From assembly GCA_040289385.1 (NCBI GenBank), contig PSLB01000004.1:1-39598 (forward strand): a DNA stretch of 39,598 nt, written 5' to 3'. The DNA is from Armatimonadota bacterium (GTDB taxonomy: Bacteria; Armatimonadota; Fimbriimonadia; Fimbriimonadales; GBS-DC). The notes below the pieces were generated by a model. That model had not been told where the DNA came from and searched no databases. It worked only from the letters and a program-made list of their open reading frames with translations. Positions within the stretch are counted from its first letter, which is position 1. The number at the start of each line of letters is the position of its first letter. The position numbers and the translations under genes were made by a program. Below are positions 1 to 39,598 of this stretch, piece by piece.

Positions 1-136
1 TGTGTCTTGCAGCTTCGCTGGGCCGGCCGACGCCATCGCTGCGGAGAACATCTGCAGGGCCGCCCCTATGCGGCCGGACGCGGCGGGCCACCCGTCCTAG
101 CTACAAGCCCCTGGCTTTAGCCATGGGGTTCATGAC
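1..136 (+). repeat. Partial, diverged member of the hairpin-ended repeat family; the window begins inside it
   Basis: Carries the conserved terminal module CAAGCCCC-TGGC-TTTA-GCCA-T-GGGGT (104-129, hairpin 108-128), followed by tcaTGAC where the other copies have agtTGAC. The interior is GC-rich with further hairpins (GGCCGC-N6-GCGGCC, CTGC-N11-GCAG). Only the end module aligns to the 237-bp copies. Confidence 0.5.
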
Positions 137-10326: not shown

Positions 10327-10492
10327 GGGGGGGTAGGGATGTTCGACCTTGAGTTGTCCCCATCTTCCCACACCTACCCCCAGCACACACAACCCACACA
10401 AAAGACGCACCACCAGCCCCATATTCCATACTAGCAGTTGCCTCGTAGAGATACAGATACGCCAAAATCGACCTTATCAAGGACGCAACCCA

Positions 10493-10522
10493 TTGACAAA
10501 CGCCCAAAAAATGGGCTATATA
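10493..10522 (+). promoter_or_regulatory. Divergent sigma70-like promoter (TTGACA-N18-TATATA) pointing into repeat copy 1; no intact gene lies behind it
   Basis: TTGACAaacgcccaaaaaatgggcTATATA read directly on the plus strand. The next coding sequence is the WD40-dockerin remnant beyond the repeat. Confidence 0.45.
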
Positions 10523-10578
10523 TAACCAACACGAAGCGCACCACTTCCTACACGCAGACCAAGCAGAAGCTCGCTTCA

Positions 10579-10815
10579 CCACCTCTTGGACGCGCCGCCG
10601 GGAGCCCCGGGCTTGAGCCCTGGGGAGGAGGCGGCGCTCCCTCCCTTCCATCATCATGTGGTATAATGCGAGCATGCGGACATCAACGCTGCCAGGAATA
10701 TCCGCAACCGCTATACCGTCTCTCGGGACGGTGGGCCGTCGTCAACCGGCCCCGAAGCCCTGCCCGGCTTGCCGGGCGAGGGCAAGCCCCCGGATTTAGC
10801 CGTGGGGTAGTTGAC
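10579..10815 (+). mobile_element. Hairpin-ended 237-bp repeat, copy 1 (non-autonomous element / structured RNA candidate)
   Basis: Manual alignment of its reverse complement to 22642-22878 gives 235/237 identity. Bulged hairpins lie at 10605-10625 (CCCC GGGC TTGA GCCC T GGGG) and 10787-10807 (CCCC CGGA TTTA GCCG T GGGG). An internal TGgTATAAT sits at 10659-10667. The flanks differ on both sides immediately outside these coordinates. Confidence 0.85.
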
Positions 10816-11341
10816 ACATCCAAGCCATGAGGTAAACGATGAGGAATCGGTACATTTCCTCACAGGGCACACGAATTGGGTCTACTCTGTTCCCTTCTCG
10901 CCCGATGGGCAGTCGCTGGCGAGTGGGAGTTGGGATGCCACCATCAGGTTGTGGCGGGTGTTGGATGGCACTTTAGGGCGCACCTATAATCAGGAAACAG
11001 GCACGGCTGTGCGTTCCATCCAGTTCTCGCCTGATGGTCGGTTGTTCTTCTACGGGCGTACAGACGGTACTGTAGTAGTGGCACGCAATCCGTTCTTCAC
11101 CGAGGTGAATGGCGATGGCTGTGTAGACGGTGCCGATCTGCTGGCGGTGCTGTTTGCGTTTGGTCAGTGTGAGTCGGGCTTGCCAGAAGATGTGAACGGT
11201 GACGGCGTGGTAGAAGACGCCGACCTGCTGAGGGTGTTGTTCCACTTCGGGATTGGGTGTCGAATCCCCACCCTAACCCTCCCTGTGAAAAAACAGTTTT
11301 CGGATAGGCTCTTAGGCGCGGTGGGGTTCCCCTATTCCTAA
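10811..11341 (+). pseudogene. 5'-truncated WD40-repeat protein with a C-terminal dockerin-like double repeat (probable gene remnant)
   Basis: Only about 2 WD40 repeats are present (LTGHTNWVYSVPFSPDGQSLASGSWDATIRLW; SIQFSPDGRLFFYGRTDGTVVV), followed by VNGDGCVDGADLLAVLFAFG...VNGDGVVEDADLLRVLFHFGIGC. The only in-frame start is a TTG inside the repeat end. Sequence upstream of the repeat is not WD40-coding. Confidence 0.5.
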
Positions 11342-19680: not shown

Positions 19681-21372
19681 ATGCGAATAAGAACGAGCCT
19701 TTGGGTGGGTTTATGGAGCCTTATTGGGAGCGTCTATGGGCAGGCACTGGTCGATACGAGCCTTACATACGATATAGTCGTCGCTTCGGGACTGACCACC
19801 CCTATTGCGATTGCGTTTCTTAACCCTGCAGAGGCGAACCGCTTCTTTGTGATTGAGAAAAACACAGGGCGGGTCAAGCTTGTGGAGAATGGGGCGGTGG
19901 TTGCTACCGTGCTGGATTTGCCCGTGAACAACGCCAGCGAGCGCGGTCTTTTAGGGATTGCCCTTCACCCAGATTTCGCCAGCAACGGCTATGTTTATTT
20001 GTACTACACCCGCTCCAGTACGGGAACGGATACCTCGACCCAATCCGCCTGGACAGACAATCGTGTGGAGCGCTACACTTGGAACGGCTCCAGTTTGGCG
20101 AATCCCACCCTTATCGTCTCTTTTCCGCGCGATACCAGCCAGAACAACGGACCCAACCATGATGGCGGCGTGATTCTGTTCGGTCCGGAGGGCTTGCTGT
20201 ATGGGGTCACGGGCGATTTGAATCGGGGCACGCTTACCAACGGGCGCATCGAACAGAACACTAGCACCACAGCCGCTGCAGGGGTTGGCGGGATCTTCCG
20301 CCTGAACCCTGATGGTTCCATCCCACCCGATAACCCCTTTATTTCCCATGCAAATGAGCGTATCCAACGGCTATGGGCGTACGGCATTCGCAACAGCTTC
20401 GGCATGGTGTTCGATGCACTGACTGCGCGCTTGTGGCTGACCGAAAACGGACCGAATGTCTACGACGAGATCAACCTTGTCGAACGGGGCTTCAATAGTG
20501 GATGGCTCAAGATTATGGGACCCGATTCCCGCAATGCTACCTATGCCGAGAACGGCAACACCCCCTACAACGCCAGCGATTTGGTCTATCTGCCCAACGC
20601 CTACTATGCTGACCCCCTCTTCTCGTGGTTGACACCGATAGGGGTCACCAGTATCCAGTTTTTGCGTTCTGCGCGTTTCGATTCGAGCTTACGCGACCAG
20701 GCAGTGGTAGGGGAGTCGAACAACGGACAGCTTTACCTGTTTCGACTGAAGTCCACACGCGATGACTTTGACCTAACGGGCGCGTTAGCCGATCGCGTTG
20801 CCGATACAGCCACCGAGCGCAACAGTCTCACTTGGGGAACCAACTGGGGGATCGTGACCGATCTCAAAATTGGTCCGGACGGCTACCTATATGGGGTCTC
20901 GCTCTTTGCCAATCGGGTTTACCGCATCCGTCCTGTGAACCCGCCTCCGATTCTGAACGGGCGTGTGCTTTTGAATGGGCGTGCAGGTCTCCCACTCGGT
21001 GTGCCCTTGAGTCTCACTCTCCTGCAGAACGGCACTCCTGTGGAGACGATTGCAACACAGTTGGATGCTTATGGGCAGTTCTCCGAGCGGATTGCTGCAT
21101 CGGGTACCTACACGGTGCGTGCCAAAGCAGGCTCCTACTTATCGGTGAGCGTGTCGAATGTCACAGTCGGCGCAAGCGGGTTCGCTTACCTGCCTCTTCA
21201 GTTTACCGTCAATGGCGATGTGAACGGCGATGACCAGACCGACGATGCCGACCTGCTGAGTGTGCTGTTCGACTTTGGGCAAAGTGAGTCGCCAGCAGAT
21301 CTCAATAACGATGGCACGGTGGATGATGCGGATCTGTTGATTGTGCTGTTCAATTTTGGTTCCAGTGGATAG
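19681..21372 (+). CDS. Secreted PQQ-dependent (glucose/sorbosone-type) sugar dehydrogenase beta-propeller, with a C-terminal beta-sandwich and dockerin-like double repeat
   Basis: Signal peptide MRIRTSLWVGLWSLIGSVYGQ. GSDH motifs are present: ERGLLGIALHPDF, NHDGGVILFGPEGLLYGVTGD, AYGIRNSFGMVFD and ENGP..DEIN. The C-terminus reads VNGDDQTDDADLLSVLFDFG...NNDGTVDDADLLIVLFNFG. Alternative in-frame starts exist at 19663 and 19597. Confidence 0.85.
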   Translation: MRIRTSLWVGLWSLIGSVYGQALVDTSLTYDIVVASGLTTPIAIAFLNPAEANRFFVIEKNTGRVKLVENGAVVATVLDLPVNNASERGLLGIALHPDFASNGYVYLYYTRSSTGTDTSTQSAWTDNRVERYTWNGSSLANPTLIVSFPRDTSQNNGPNHDGGVILFGPEGLLYGVTGDLNRGTLTNGRIEQNTSTTAAAGVGGIFRLNPDGSIPPDNPFISHANERIQRLWAYGIRNSFGMVFDALTARLWLTENGPNVYDEINLVERGFNSGWLKIMGPDSRNATYAENGNTPYNASDLVYLPNAYYADPLFSWLTPIGVTSIQFLRSARFDSSLRDQAVVGESNNGQLYLFRLKSTRDDFDLTGALADRVADTATERNSLTWGTNWGIVTDLKIGPDGYLYGVSLFANRVYRIRPVNPPPILNGRVLLNGRAGLPLGVPLSLTLLQNGTPVETIATQLDAYGQFSERIAASGTYTVRAKAGSYLSVSVSNVTVGASGFAYLPLQFTVNGDVNGDDQTDDADLLSVLFDFGQSESPADLNNDGTVDDADLLIVLFNFGSSG

Positions 21373-22262: not shown

Positions 22263-23138
22263 ATGCGCTCTATCGGGCTCTGAGGGATTATTTTTCTGAT
22301 GCTAATAGTGCTGTGGGCACAAGCGGAGCCTACACCCCAAACAGTGCTGAATCGGCTTGTGCAGAAGGCACGCACGACGCGTGCCTATGCCTATCATTGG
22401 GAGCTCCAACAGCGCGACCCCCGCACCAATAAACTGGGCGAGAAGCAGGTCTACAAACTGGAACTGCTCAAGCCGCCCTACCGCAAGTTGACCATTATTC
22501 AGCGCGACCCTTTCAGTAACGGCGCTGTACTGATCTACAATCCCGATAAGGATAGAAAGTTCATGCACGCAAAGGATTGATCCACCGCACCTACGCGACG
22601 GACGATCCCGAAATAGCCGACTTCTTCCGAACCGATCTAGAGTCAACTACCCCACGGCTAAAGCCGGGGGCTTACCCTCGCCCGGCAAGCCGGGCAGGGC
22701 TTCGGGGCCGGTTGACGACGGCCCACCGTCCCGAGAGACGGTATAGCGGTTGCGGATATTCCTGGCAGCGTTGATGTCCGCATGCTCGCATTATACCACA
22801 TGATGATGGAAGGGAGGGAGCGCCGCCTCCTCCCCAGGGCTCAAGCCCGGGGCTCCCGGCGGCGCGTCCAAGAGGTGGATTGCGAAGGATATTCAACGCC
22901 TCTTCAAAGGCGCGAGAGCAGAACCCGTTCGGCGTGTGAAATACAACCGTCGCGACTGCTATCTGCTTGCTTTCACCACAAAGGATCAGACCTACACGCG
23001 CGTTGTGCTGTGGTTGGAAGTGAACGACTCGATGCCCCTCCGCATCGAGCCATCATGAATGCGAAGGGTCTTTACTCTGTGCGGGTGTATACCGATTACT
23101 CTTTCCCCAATCTGCGGGTAGGTGATTCCTCAGTGTGA
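22263..23138 (+). pseudogene. Decayed LolA-like / outer-membrane lipoprotein-sorting-fold gene, interrupted by repeat copy 2
   Basis: The signal peptide MRSIGL*GIIFLMLIVLWAQA carries an in-frame TGA at 22281-22283. There is a frame change near 22575 (..FMHAKD* then IHRTYATDDPEIADFFRTDLE). A 237-bp insertion follows, after which the gene resumes as IAKDIQRLFKG...VVLWLEVNDSMPLRIE. A second frame change near 23050 leads into NAKGLYSVRVYTDYSFPNLRVGD. Confidence 0.6.
22642..22878 (-). mobile_element. Hairpin-ended 237-bp repeat, copy 2, inverted relative to copy 1 and inserted in the LolA-like gene
   Basis: Two mismatches to copy 1 (22663 and 22674). Hairpins lie at 22650-22670 and 22832-22852. 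The internal TGgTATAAT is on the minus strand at 22790-22798. The host reading frame is recognisable on both sides. Confidence 0.85.
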
Positions 23139-23444
23139 GGGAGGAACCCCTCGAAAGCTAGCGTACCGAAACCCGCCCCGCACGAAATTCGTAGTATAAT
23201 ATTAGGTGGGGCGCCCCATCATAGAGGGGCTATCCTTCACAATTGGGTGCATCGGCAAAGTTGCCTCCGCACGCCAGAGAGGCTTTAGGGTTTTTCTCGG
23301 CGTCTATGGAACAATTCCTCTACAAAGGCGTGGAACTCCCTGCAACCGTTGGAGAGTCTAACCGATAATCATGGTGAGTGGCATCGGGGGAACCGTTCCA
23401 GCAGGGGGCAGTGACCATGCACTCGACCCACTAAGGGGGTAAAA

Positions 23445-34924: not shown

Positions 34925-35854
34925 ATGCGCAAATGGGCAGTTCTTTGGGCAATCATGGTGGTGCTACCAGGCGTCGCCCAGCATGAGAACGACCTACTGT
35001 TTGGGGCTTCGGCGGGGCGAGCCACCATCATCCAGCCCGTCCCACACCCGGTGCGCCAGATGAGTCCGGTTGTGGGCAACTTTGTGCTGGATGTTGGGTT
35101 AGATTTCTACTTCGAGCCTGACACGGGTCTGCCTCAGCTTCAGTCGTGTCGCGTGCAACAGGTCTGGATCAGCCCTGGATTACTGGGTACGCGGTCTGGC
35201 ATGGGCACGGTTTTCTGCGAGGCAGGGTGCCAAAACTACTTCGACCTGCCGACTCGGGGCACTCCGCACCACCATCTGCTTTTCGCGGTGAACACAGCAG
35301 GCGTTTATGTGTGGGATGTGCGAGCCGTGCGTGCCCGCGATCGCAACGGAGTTCCACTCGCTGACATGGACGGGGTGTACCGCATCTATATGGTTGCGGG
35401 CACCCCGCGGCGGGTGTACGGCGATGTGGTCATCCGTTCCGCCTATCAGGGCGATCCGTATCTGCGCAGGCTCACTATCGCTTTACGCCGGAACGGACAG
35501 TTCCTTGCCCAGCAGACCCAGCCCCCCAACCCCAACGCCATCTATCCCTACATGGTGGGTTTCACTCAGTCAGGCACGGTGGATCTCGTCGCAAAGCTGG
35601 AAGGACACCTCTCCCGCCGCATCCGAGGCTTCGCCCTTACAGGAGCCCATCGGATCGATTGGGAGTTCACTGTCGCAGGCGACATCAACGACGATGATGT
35701 GATCGACGATGCCGACCTGCTGCAGGTGCTGCTCGCCTTCGGACAATCGGGAGCCAACCCTGCGGATGTGAACGGCGACGGTGTCGTAGATGAAGCGGAC
35801 CTACTGGTGGTGCTATTCAACTACGGCGCCACAGGGGAAGGCAGCCAGCCCTAA
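34925..35854 (+). CDS. Secreted protein: unknown His-rich N-terminal domain, a beta-sandwich and a dockerin-like double repeat
   Basis: Signal peptide MRKWAVLWAIMVVLPGVAQ, then HENDLLFG.. The N-domain is paralogous to the next gene. The C-terminus reads INDDDVIDDADLLQVLLAFG...VNGDGVVDEADLLVVLFNYG. A GGGAGG RBS is present. Confidence 0.75.
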   Translation: MRKWAVLWAIMVVLPGVAQHENDLLFGASAGRATIIQPVPHPVRQMSPVVGNFVLDVGLDFYFEPDTGLPQLQSCRVQQVWISPGLLGTRSGMGTVFCEAGCQNYFDLPTRGTPHHHLLFAVNTAGVYVWDVRAVRARDRNGVPLADMDGVYRIYMVAGTPRRVYGDVVIRSAYQGDPYLRRLTIALRRNGQFLAQQTQPPNPNAIYPYMVGFTQSGTVDLVAKLEGHLSRRIRGFALTGAHRIDWEFTVAGDINDDDVIDDADLLQVLLAFGQSGANPADVNGDGVVDEADLLVVLFNYGATGEGSQP

Positions 35855-39523: not shown

Positions 39524-39598
39524 GTCAACTACCCCATAGCTAAAGCTAGGGGCTTGCACCTAACCCGCTTCCGCGGGCTGGCACGATAGGCCGGTTGA
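39524..39598 (-). repeat. Partial, diverged member of the hairpin-ended repeat family; the window ends inside it
   Basis: GTCAACTA-CCCCATAGC-TAAA-GCTAGGGG-CTTG..., with the hairpin at 39532-39552. A second hairpin (CCCGC-TTCC-GCGGG) and the conserved GGCCGGTTGA occur at the same relative positions as in copy 2. Confidence 0.6.

Follow-up and report, generated by a model that had tools for sequence, protein, structure and literature searches.

A gene-less IS200/IS605-family element from an Armatimonadota-like contig that probably couples the tnpB promoter to a complete omega-RNA scaffold

Analysis of a 39,598-nt stretch of DNA from an Armatimonadota bacterium (contig PSLB01000004.1; hereafter "the window", meaning the whole stretch) identified two inverted copies of a 237-nt repeat, at 10579-10815 on the + strand and 22642-22878 on the - strand, which are 99% complementary and differ at two positions (10783 C/T and 10794 A/C). 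Each copy is probably a protein-less, non-autonomous derivative of a tnpB-only IS200/IS605 element, generated by internal deletion and corresponding to the elements termed palindrome-associated or miniature inverted-repeat transposable elements (PATE/MITE), in which the promoter and the complete omega-RNA scaffold have been kept. The original prediction for this locus had proposed an extended -10 promoter driving a structured, omega-RNA-like transcript out of the element end, encoded by a stand-alone copy that carries no protein gene and is served in trans. Both the omega-RNA-like scaffold at a transposon end and the protein-less copy are borne out by homology to tnpB 3' ends, by a covarying structure that includes a pseudoknot, and by hallmarks of the IS200/IS605 family.

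Probable origin of the element by deletion within tnpB

A scan of a genome collection with an exact 26-mer from the 3' hairpin returned three places, all in a single metagenome-assembled genome (MAG) labelled Bacillota: one is a tnpB 3' end (L006) and the other two are right ends. The gene whose 3' part L006 represents has Pfam OrfB_IS605 and Cas12f1-like_TNB domains, and the last ~140 nt of L006 align with window positions 10673-10815. Consistent with this relationship, the window element retains a tnpB C-terminal remnant at 10670-10811 (+) that lacks an in-frame start (EHADINAARNIRNRYTVSRDGGPSSTGPEALPGLPGEGKPPDLAVG, followed by a stop). The remnant frame, EHADINAARNIR...LAVG with its stop codon at 10809-10811, corresponds to the RuvC-III motif and the C-terminus of TnpB, and in tblastn comparisons shares 80-83% identity over 46 aa with the C-termini of two full-length TnpBs, P0003 and P0115 (E ~1e-17, range 1e-15 to 1e-18). 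The family to which these proteins belong is large, with 777 matches at E<=1e-20 among the candidates scored, and its TnpBs retain the RuvC residues D, E and D.

Comparison with full-length elements (L009, L011 and L017) shows how the gene-less form is put together. Each of these consists of a left end, in which a compound hairpin is followed by a promoter, a tnpB of ~395 aa, and a right end whose final bases are invariably ...GGGGTAGTTGAC, mostly 1-5 nt past the stop codon. Window positions 10590-10667 align to the left-end hairpin and promoter of the full-length elements, and positions 10671-10815 to their tnpB 3' end and right end, with local alignments giving 85-88% DNA identity for the right-end part and 72-86% for the core of the left-end hairpin. 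Left-end homology stops at ~10667 and right-end homology begins at 10671-10673, placing within 10668-10675 (+) a deletion junction at which the 5' end of tnpB is joined to the region of the RuvC-III motif (HADIN), and which also contains the predicted transcription start site at ~10674. A sister copy (L039) displays the junction more directly as ATG GAC AT/C AAC (here and below a slash marks the break), joining the tnpB start (ATG GAC ATT CAG) to the HADIN codons (GAC ATC AAC) through GACAT microhomology. About 1.05 kb of tnpB is missing from the window element, and an internal deletion running from the tnpB start codon to HADIN would fuse the left end and promoter to the last ~140 nt.

The ends and insertion sites of the element place it within the IS200/IS605 family. 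Judged from the alignments, the initial four nucleotides of the 237-nt repeat, CCAC, are the target site, located in host DNA outside the element at 10579-10582 (+) for copy 1 and at 22875-22878 (-) for copy 2, so that the element proper is 233 nt in length (10583-10815 (+) and 22642-22874 (-)), with both ends homologous to those of L009, L011 and L017. The right end at 10815 is the true end in every relative aligned. CCAC lies directly 5' of all seven gene-less copies identified (see below), and likewise 5' of the full-length relatives L009, L011, L017, L024 and L032; relatives inserted at different sites diverge directly 5' of one point (...GAGCCAC/AGAATC in L024, ...AACCTAC/AGAATC in L034), which is preceded by CCAC and sometimes by CTAC or CCAT.

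Copy 2 provides a view of the empty site, as it is inserted in a + strand gene for a LolA-like lipoprotein-sorting protein (PF17131). In homologues that are intact, which share up to 77% identity (a Fimbriimonadales MAG protein), the sequence runs ...FFRTDLEW/IA...; at the window locus ...TDLE is followed by the element and after it by (W)IAKD, the conserved host Trp codon being formed, on the + strand, from the first four bases of the repeat. Because the intact homologues show the empty site as ...DLEW/IA..., copy 2 was inserted exactly after CCAC and without target duplication. A duplicated or shared target just outside the 237-nt repeat was also considered and rejected, the flanking candidates being inconsistent (TTCAC versus CAATC), and the repeat's own CCAC is taken as the target instead. 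The LolA-like gene (22299-23140, +) additionally carries two frameshifts relative to its homologues, at ...PDKDRK/VHARKG... and ...RIE/..AKGLYS..., and the split gene is thus either a pseudogene or affected by indel errors in the assembly.

Insertion without duplication 3' of a fixed tetranucleotide is a signature of IS200/IS605 elements. Terminal inverted repeats are absent, with no such relationship between the ends CTCTTGGAC... and ...GTAGTTGAC. Instead, the left end folds, both as DNA and as RNA, into a compound hairpin at 10592-10637 (+), with an outer stem formed by GCGCCGCC and GGCGGCGC and an inner hairpin at 10605-10625. Compensating changes maintain this compound hairpin at the left ends of related elements, and it is presumably the structure recognized by the transposase TnpA. 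The left inner hairpin (GCCCCGGGCTTGAGCCCTGGGG) resembles the right-end hairpin (GCCCCCGGATTTAGCCGTGGGG, 10786-10808), and the two co-vary in relatives L024, L027 and L031. It is the combination of absent inverted repeats, end hairpins and CCAC insertion without duplication that assigns the element to IS200/IS605; no tnpA was detected in the window or beside the full-length relatives that were fetched. In this family the TnpA target doubles as the transposon-adjacent motif (TAM) of TnpB (PMC10055086), making CCAC a candidate TAM for the TnpB of this clade.

Structure of the omega-RNA scaffold and its predicted promoter

To define the RNA, we compared, in one alignment, the 3'-terminal ~146 nt from 19 members of the family, comprising the two window copies, L036, two MAG right-end fragments and 14 full-length elements whose TnpBs are 48-86% identical to the protein queries used. 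The sequence folds with a z-score of approximately -3 relative to shuffled sequences, as RNA and as DNA of either strand, and the minimum-free-energy fold includes ACCGUC(U)/(G)GACGGU, GGGCCG/CGGCCC, the GCCCUGCCCGG hairpin and a bulged terminal hairpin. RNAalifold recovered four stems from the alignment, with double changes in 20 of 27 pairs. When the pseudoknot described below was added to the four stems, 97.6% of cells were paired and 24 of 33 pairs showed compensatory changes, values which none of 500 shuffles reached on any measure; slid controls of the same five-helix count gave 28-48% paired. These results uphold four of the hairpins listed in the original prediction. A fifth, GCGGA...UCCGC (10676-10705), is not conserved and behaves like shuffled sequence (231 of 500), and the GCCCUGCCCGG hairpin (10757-10783), described as 12 bp in length, exists as 11 bp with one bulged G.

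From 5' to 3', stem A (10715-10732, +; 7 bp) is paired in 100% of cases with compensatory changes in six of seven pairs, and is followed by stem B (10733-10752, +; 6 bp), also 100% paired with 4/6 compensatory, which is the analogue of stem 1 of the ISDra2 omega-RNA. The loop of stem B, GUCAAC (10741-10746), forms the 5' strand of a pseudoknot whose 3' strand, GUUGAC (10810-10815, +), comprises the last bases of the right end and contains the transposon-encoded motif TGAC. This 6-bp helix is 100% paired over the 19 sequences with compensatory changes in four of its six pairs, as illustrated by GUCAGU-ACUGAC in L028 and L030, GUCGAU-AUCGAC in L029 and AUCAGUGG-CCACUGAU in L026. Stem C (10757-10783, +), an analogue of ISDra2 stems 2/3, has a conserved base of 5 bp (95.8% paired, 4/5 compensatory) and a distal part that varies in length across the family; the C/T difference between the window copies at 10783 converts a G-C to a G-U pair and preserves pairing. 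Stem D (10786-10808, +; 93.6% paired, 6/9 compensatory) is also the right-end hairpin of the transposon, and bears a UUUA loop at 10795-10798, i.e. positions -21 to -18. The scaffold of the window element spans 10715-10815, with ~40 nt kept upstream of it, and, as far as alignment and covariation can indicate, the retained 3' part is a complete omega-RNA scaffold together with the right end.

Searches against curated RNA families returned no match: no Rfam 15 family reached its gathering score anywhere in the window, including at the scaffold, which the original prediction had suggested comparing with known covariance models. A permissive Rfam scan of 10400-11000 (E up to 10) gave only chance-level matches to unrelated families, and a tRNA/tmRNA scan found no genes. 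The silence of Rfam means that the RNA of this clade is uncurated, and is not proof against an omega-RNA.

Upstream of the scaffold, the predicted extended -10 box TGgTATAAT (TGGTATAAT) is present in both copies (10659-10667, +; 22790-22798, -), and TGNTATAAT has no further match in the window, where 0.4 matches are expected by chance. In the alignment, TGgTATAAT falls opposite TGcTATACT of L011 and L009 and TGaTGTAAT of L017, just 5' of the tnpB start codon, and on the basis of this correspondence we regard it as the inherited tnpB promoter. The parental box of L011 is preceded by a -35 box, TTGACA. In the parents the promoter box lies 6-9 nt from the tnpB start codon, which implies a near-leaderless tnpB mRNA. 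The distance of ~140 nt predicted between transcription start and element boundary also held, at ~142 nt from ~10674 to 10815. A TGTGGT similarity linking the promoter region to zinc-finger codons in the L017 tnpB was dismissed as coincidence, as the left-end homology to L017 spans the -10 box.

Two side observations concern the promoters and left ends of full-length relatives. At 990-1160 of L011, the element encoding TnpB P0001 is nested after CCAC within an unrelated tnpB, whose own promoter reads TGgTAGAAT. In L013-L015, a P0001 TnpB has its left-end hairpin replaced by unrelated sequence with the promoter kept, and these may be left-end-truncated, immobile copies.

Dispersal of gene-less copies and alternative explanations

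In addition to the two copies in the window, five gene-less copies were identified on metagenome contigs, giving seven in all: L036, found by a scan for the left-end/promoter motif, and L039, L040, L041 and L042, found through the 46-aa remnant peptide, which matched four short spurious open reading frames (ORFs). L039-L042 all derive from one JGI sample (3300003453) that also contains contigs with proteins of the window. The left-end hairpin, junction region and right end recur in all seven copies, which occupy unrelated sites with identical boundaries, contain inconsistent remnant ORFs and score between 58 and 117 bits against the covariance model. Since the deleted form has transposed repeatedly, occupying seven sites, it is presumably mobilized in trans. 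Gene-less copies also appear to outnumber assembled full-length elements in this community.

Among the sister copies, several peculiarities were noted. L041 lies directly after a tRNA-Thr gene, its CCAC consisting of the CCA end of that gene plus one further C, and in the same contig (1356-1650 and 1735-1797) a second right end of the family occurs 87 nt downstream, on the opposite strand and at the contig end. In a sub-lineage represented by L036 (1381-1472, -) and L041 (1557-1648), a perfect 13-bp palindrome, GTAGGGGCACGGC AT GCCGTGCCCCTAC, stands in place of stem C and of the 5' arm of distal stem D, and may be a new TnpA hairpin. L039 (2523-2656) carries an in-frame deletion leaving a 44-codon ORF, composed of the tnpB start codon and the last ~41 codons; this frame is not kept in other copies.

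We infer from this arrangement how the element would operate. Transcription from the inherited promoter would begin near 10674 and cross 10815, yielding ~140 nt of scaffold and then 16-20 nt of flank sequence as the guide. Based on the layout of known omega-RNAs (PMC10097598, PMC10055086), the predicted guide segments are ACATCCAAGCCATGAGGTAA (ACATCCAAGCC...) at 10816-10835 (+) for copy 1, and TCTAGATCGGTTCGGAAGAA (TCTAGATCGG...) at 22622-22641 (-) for copy 2, the latter in antisense orientation within the 5' part of the LolA-like gene that copy 2 disrupts. CCAC followed by the copy 1 guide occurs at no other site in the window, and the same holds for CCAC followed by the copy 2 guide. TnpB is known to process its own transcript into omega-RNA (PMC10278001), and the TnpB of a full-length relative would bind the RNA in trans, possibly trimming its 5' end. 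A Y1 TnpA, likewise acting in trans, would excise the element; the rejoined CCAC and guide would then be cut by TnpB, and repair of the cut empty site from the sister chromosome would restore the element, following a published model (PMC10055086). The occupied site would be protected, because TGAC and not CCAC precedes the guide.

The source of TnpB bears on this scheme. Full-length P0115 elements (L016-L019), with a near-identical scaffold and left end, are present in the same ENA samples, and it is plausible that a cognate TnpB resides in the same cell. Two further family members lie at the window edges. At 1-136 (+) we found the 3' end of a different tnpB (...CSFAGPADAIAAENI..., ending ...VSCSFAGPADAIAAENICRAAPMRPDAAGHPS and a stop) with a right end that stops at 136 (GGGGTTCATGAC), the window beginning inside this element; it scores 32 bits against the covariance model (E 3e-6), and its stem D barely differs from that of the gene-less element, with no obvious matching pseudoknot partner. 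At the other edge, blastn and the covariance model located the right end of a further member (39524-39598, -), whose body extends beyond the window and whose end, at 39524, precedes a BatA/VWA gene by 27 nt; its stem B and pseudoknot loop are the same as those of the gene-less element, and motifs of its predicted C-terminus (...STGLSCQPAEAG) matched none of 120 fetched TnpBs. Metagenome short-read contigs of other samples break exactly at these edge elements and within the 237-nt repeat. Near-identical right ends and scaffolds of ~100 nt were also observed in three assemblies with differing labels, namely L006-L008 (JAPNUR01 MAG, Bacillota, isolate name CF.Solf.bin.16), L017 (PSLQ01 MAG, Pyrinomonas) and the Armatimonadota-like window, which suggests either recent spread across phyla or binning errors.

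Several observations weigh against a functional omega-RNA element. No -35 hexamer accompanies the box in the window, and promoter use is predicted from the -10 motif. Because the stems overlap the coding region of tnpB, and transposition too requires the stem D hairpin, their conservation need not be wholly RNA-driven. In copy 1 the C-G pair that closed the UUUA loop is gone (10794 A). Damage to distal stem D in some sister copies (L036, L040 and L041) suggests that part of the family at least is decaying. To these may be added the lack of an Rfam match noted above. With regard to TnpB supply, no complete tnpB is present in the window, the fragment at 1-136 comes from a subfamily that is more divergent and has different upstream stems, and the P0115 contigs differ in coverage, are labelled Pyrinomonas (another phylum) and may not share a cell with the element.

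Several of these observations underlie the foremost alternative, that the element is a relic of transposition alone, mobilized by TnpA through its end hairpins, with an omega-RNA carried along by the chance position of the deletion end and either untranscribed or unused by TnpB. Decay of stem C or distal stem D (L036, L040, L041 and L042), the lost loop-closing pair in copy 1, the missing -35 box and the lack of a tnpB proven in the genome would all fit such a relic. We nevertheless consider it unlikely, as ~140 nt have been kept on the right, well past the right-end hairpin, and these include every conserved omega-RNA stem. Furthermore, while stem C is variable or replaced among sister copies, stem B, the pseudoknot loop and the pseudoknot 3' strand are invariant in all seven copies bar one base in L039, and the 10783 C/T difference keeps pairing as G-U. 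The -10 box, too, is found in 7/7 copies (TGGTATAAT in four; TGTTACAAT, TGGTACAAT and TGGTATGAT in one each, conforming to TGnTAyAAT or TGGTATGAT) even as other positions of the left-end spacer vary.

A more speculative extension of the omega-RNA reading, which we regard as doubtful, is that the gene-less copies are hyperparasites competing with full-length elements for TnpB, or that they have been adopted by the host as trans-acting guides for TnpB or a nuclease-dead relative. If the former were true, possession of its own strong promoter and a bare omega-RNA would allow the element to secure its own retention through guide competition; if the latter, the guides would direct TnpB or its nuclease-dead relative to chosen sites.

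The original prediction had also offered a simpler alternative, in which the RNA is a leader for downstream genes and the element a portable outward promoter or structured leader. Around copy 1 there is some basis for this idea: no terminator follows the element, and the only start codon (TTG, 10811) of the ORF downstream, which encodes WD40 and dockerin-like repeats, lies inside the right end. The idea fails at the other insertions, as read-out from copy 2 enters the 5' half of the disrupted LolA-like gene in antisense orientation and the downstream gene is on the opposite strand in L039 and L041. Moreover, the ORF after copy 1 looks truncated, with one or two WD40 repeats, and the structure is accounted for by omega-RNA homology, leaving a leader role very improbable. 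As to the ORF itself (10811-11341, +), an outward transcript could read into its one or two WD40 repeats and dockerin-like repeats. At least two secreted proteins, unrelated to one another, end in dockerin-type sequence (GDVNGD...DLL.VL) that is encoded by direct repeats of ~83 nt at 11085-11254, 21200-21282 and 35664-35746, the assignment being based on the copies at 11085-11254 and 21200-21282.

Finally, gene callers predict ORFs of 43-59 aa on sister copies, and in L039 the tnpB start codon is in frame with the last 41 codons, but a small protein of ~44 aa resembling a mini-TnpB C-terminus is scarcely credible, given that the window ATG at 10674 is out of frame, a stop in the TnpB frame lies at 10664-10666, frame and start vary among copies, and 46 residues are too few for a RuvC or zinc-finger fold.

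Comparison with characterized systems and significance

Elements of this kind have already been described: PATEs with omega-RNAs were noted for ISGst families of Geobacillus stearothermophilus (Meers et al. 2023, PMC10055086). Like these, the window element has both ends of an IS605-family transposon, lacks a protein gene, is present in multiple copies and would need TnpB and TnpA from elsewhere. It differs in its TnpB clade, in its candidate CCAC TAM and in its host, a member of an Armatimonadota-like thermophile community, and also in a deletion that has placed the native tnpB promoter immediately next to the scaffold to form a minimal cassette, known here from sequence. What is new is a member of an uncurated TnpB clade with a candidate CCAC TAM and a tidy fusion of promoter and scaffold. 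Also among its closest counterparts are the tnpB-only (IS1341-type) elements L009/P0003, L011/P0001 and L017/P0115, with which it shares the left-end hairpin, promoter position, right end, scaffold and CCAC; these differ in encoding a TnpB of ~395 aa whose RuvC triad is intact.

The omega-RNA of ISDra2 from Deinococcus radiodurans, resolved by cryo-electron microscopy, has four stems (1-4), a pseudoknot that pairs the loop of stem 1 with positions -5 to -3, and a UUUA tetraloop at -20 to -17 (PMC10097598). The window element has no detectable sequence similarity to this RNA, and yet the two are alike in their origin from a tnpB 3' end and right end with a guide taken from the flank, in a stem loop pseudoknotted with bases just 5' of the guide, in a long, variable middle stem, and in a terminal stem whose UUUA loop lies ~20 nt from the guide. 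By contrast, the ISDra2 pseudoknot comprises three canonical and two non-canonical pairs whereas that of the window element has 6 bp, stem A is an extra conserved 5' stem, the candidate TAM is CCAC as opposed to TTGAT, and ISDra2, unlike the window element, carries tnpA and tnpB in cis.

At the level of genome annotation, the element explains an assembly-breaking repeat, a disrupted LolA-like gene and spurious ORF calls of 40-60 aa. The analysis also defines a previously uncurated omega-RNA structure, of four stems and a 6-bp pseudoknot, for a TnpB clade that is widespread, and this may be of use both for annotating genomes and in choosing compact, thermophile-derived genome editors. If the reading favoured here is correct, the element would represent a clean, natural minimal cassette consisting of a promoter, an omega-RNA scaffold and a flank-derived guide, and would illustrate how the RNA part of a TnpB homing system can spread without its protein.

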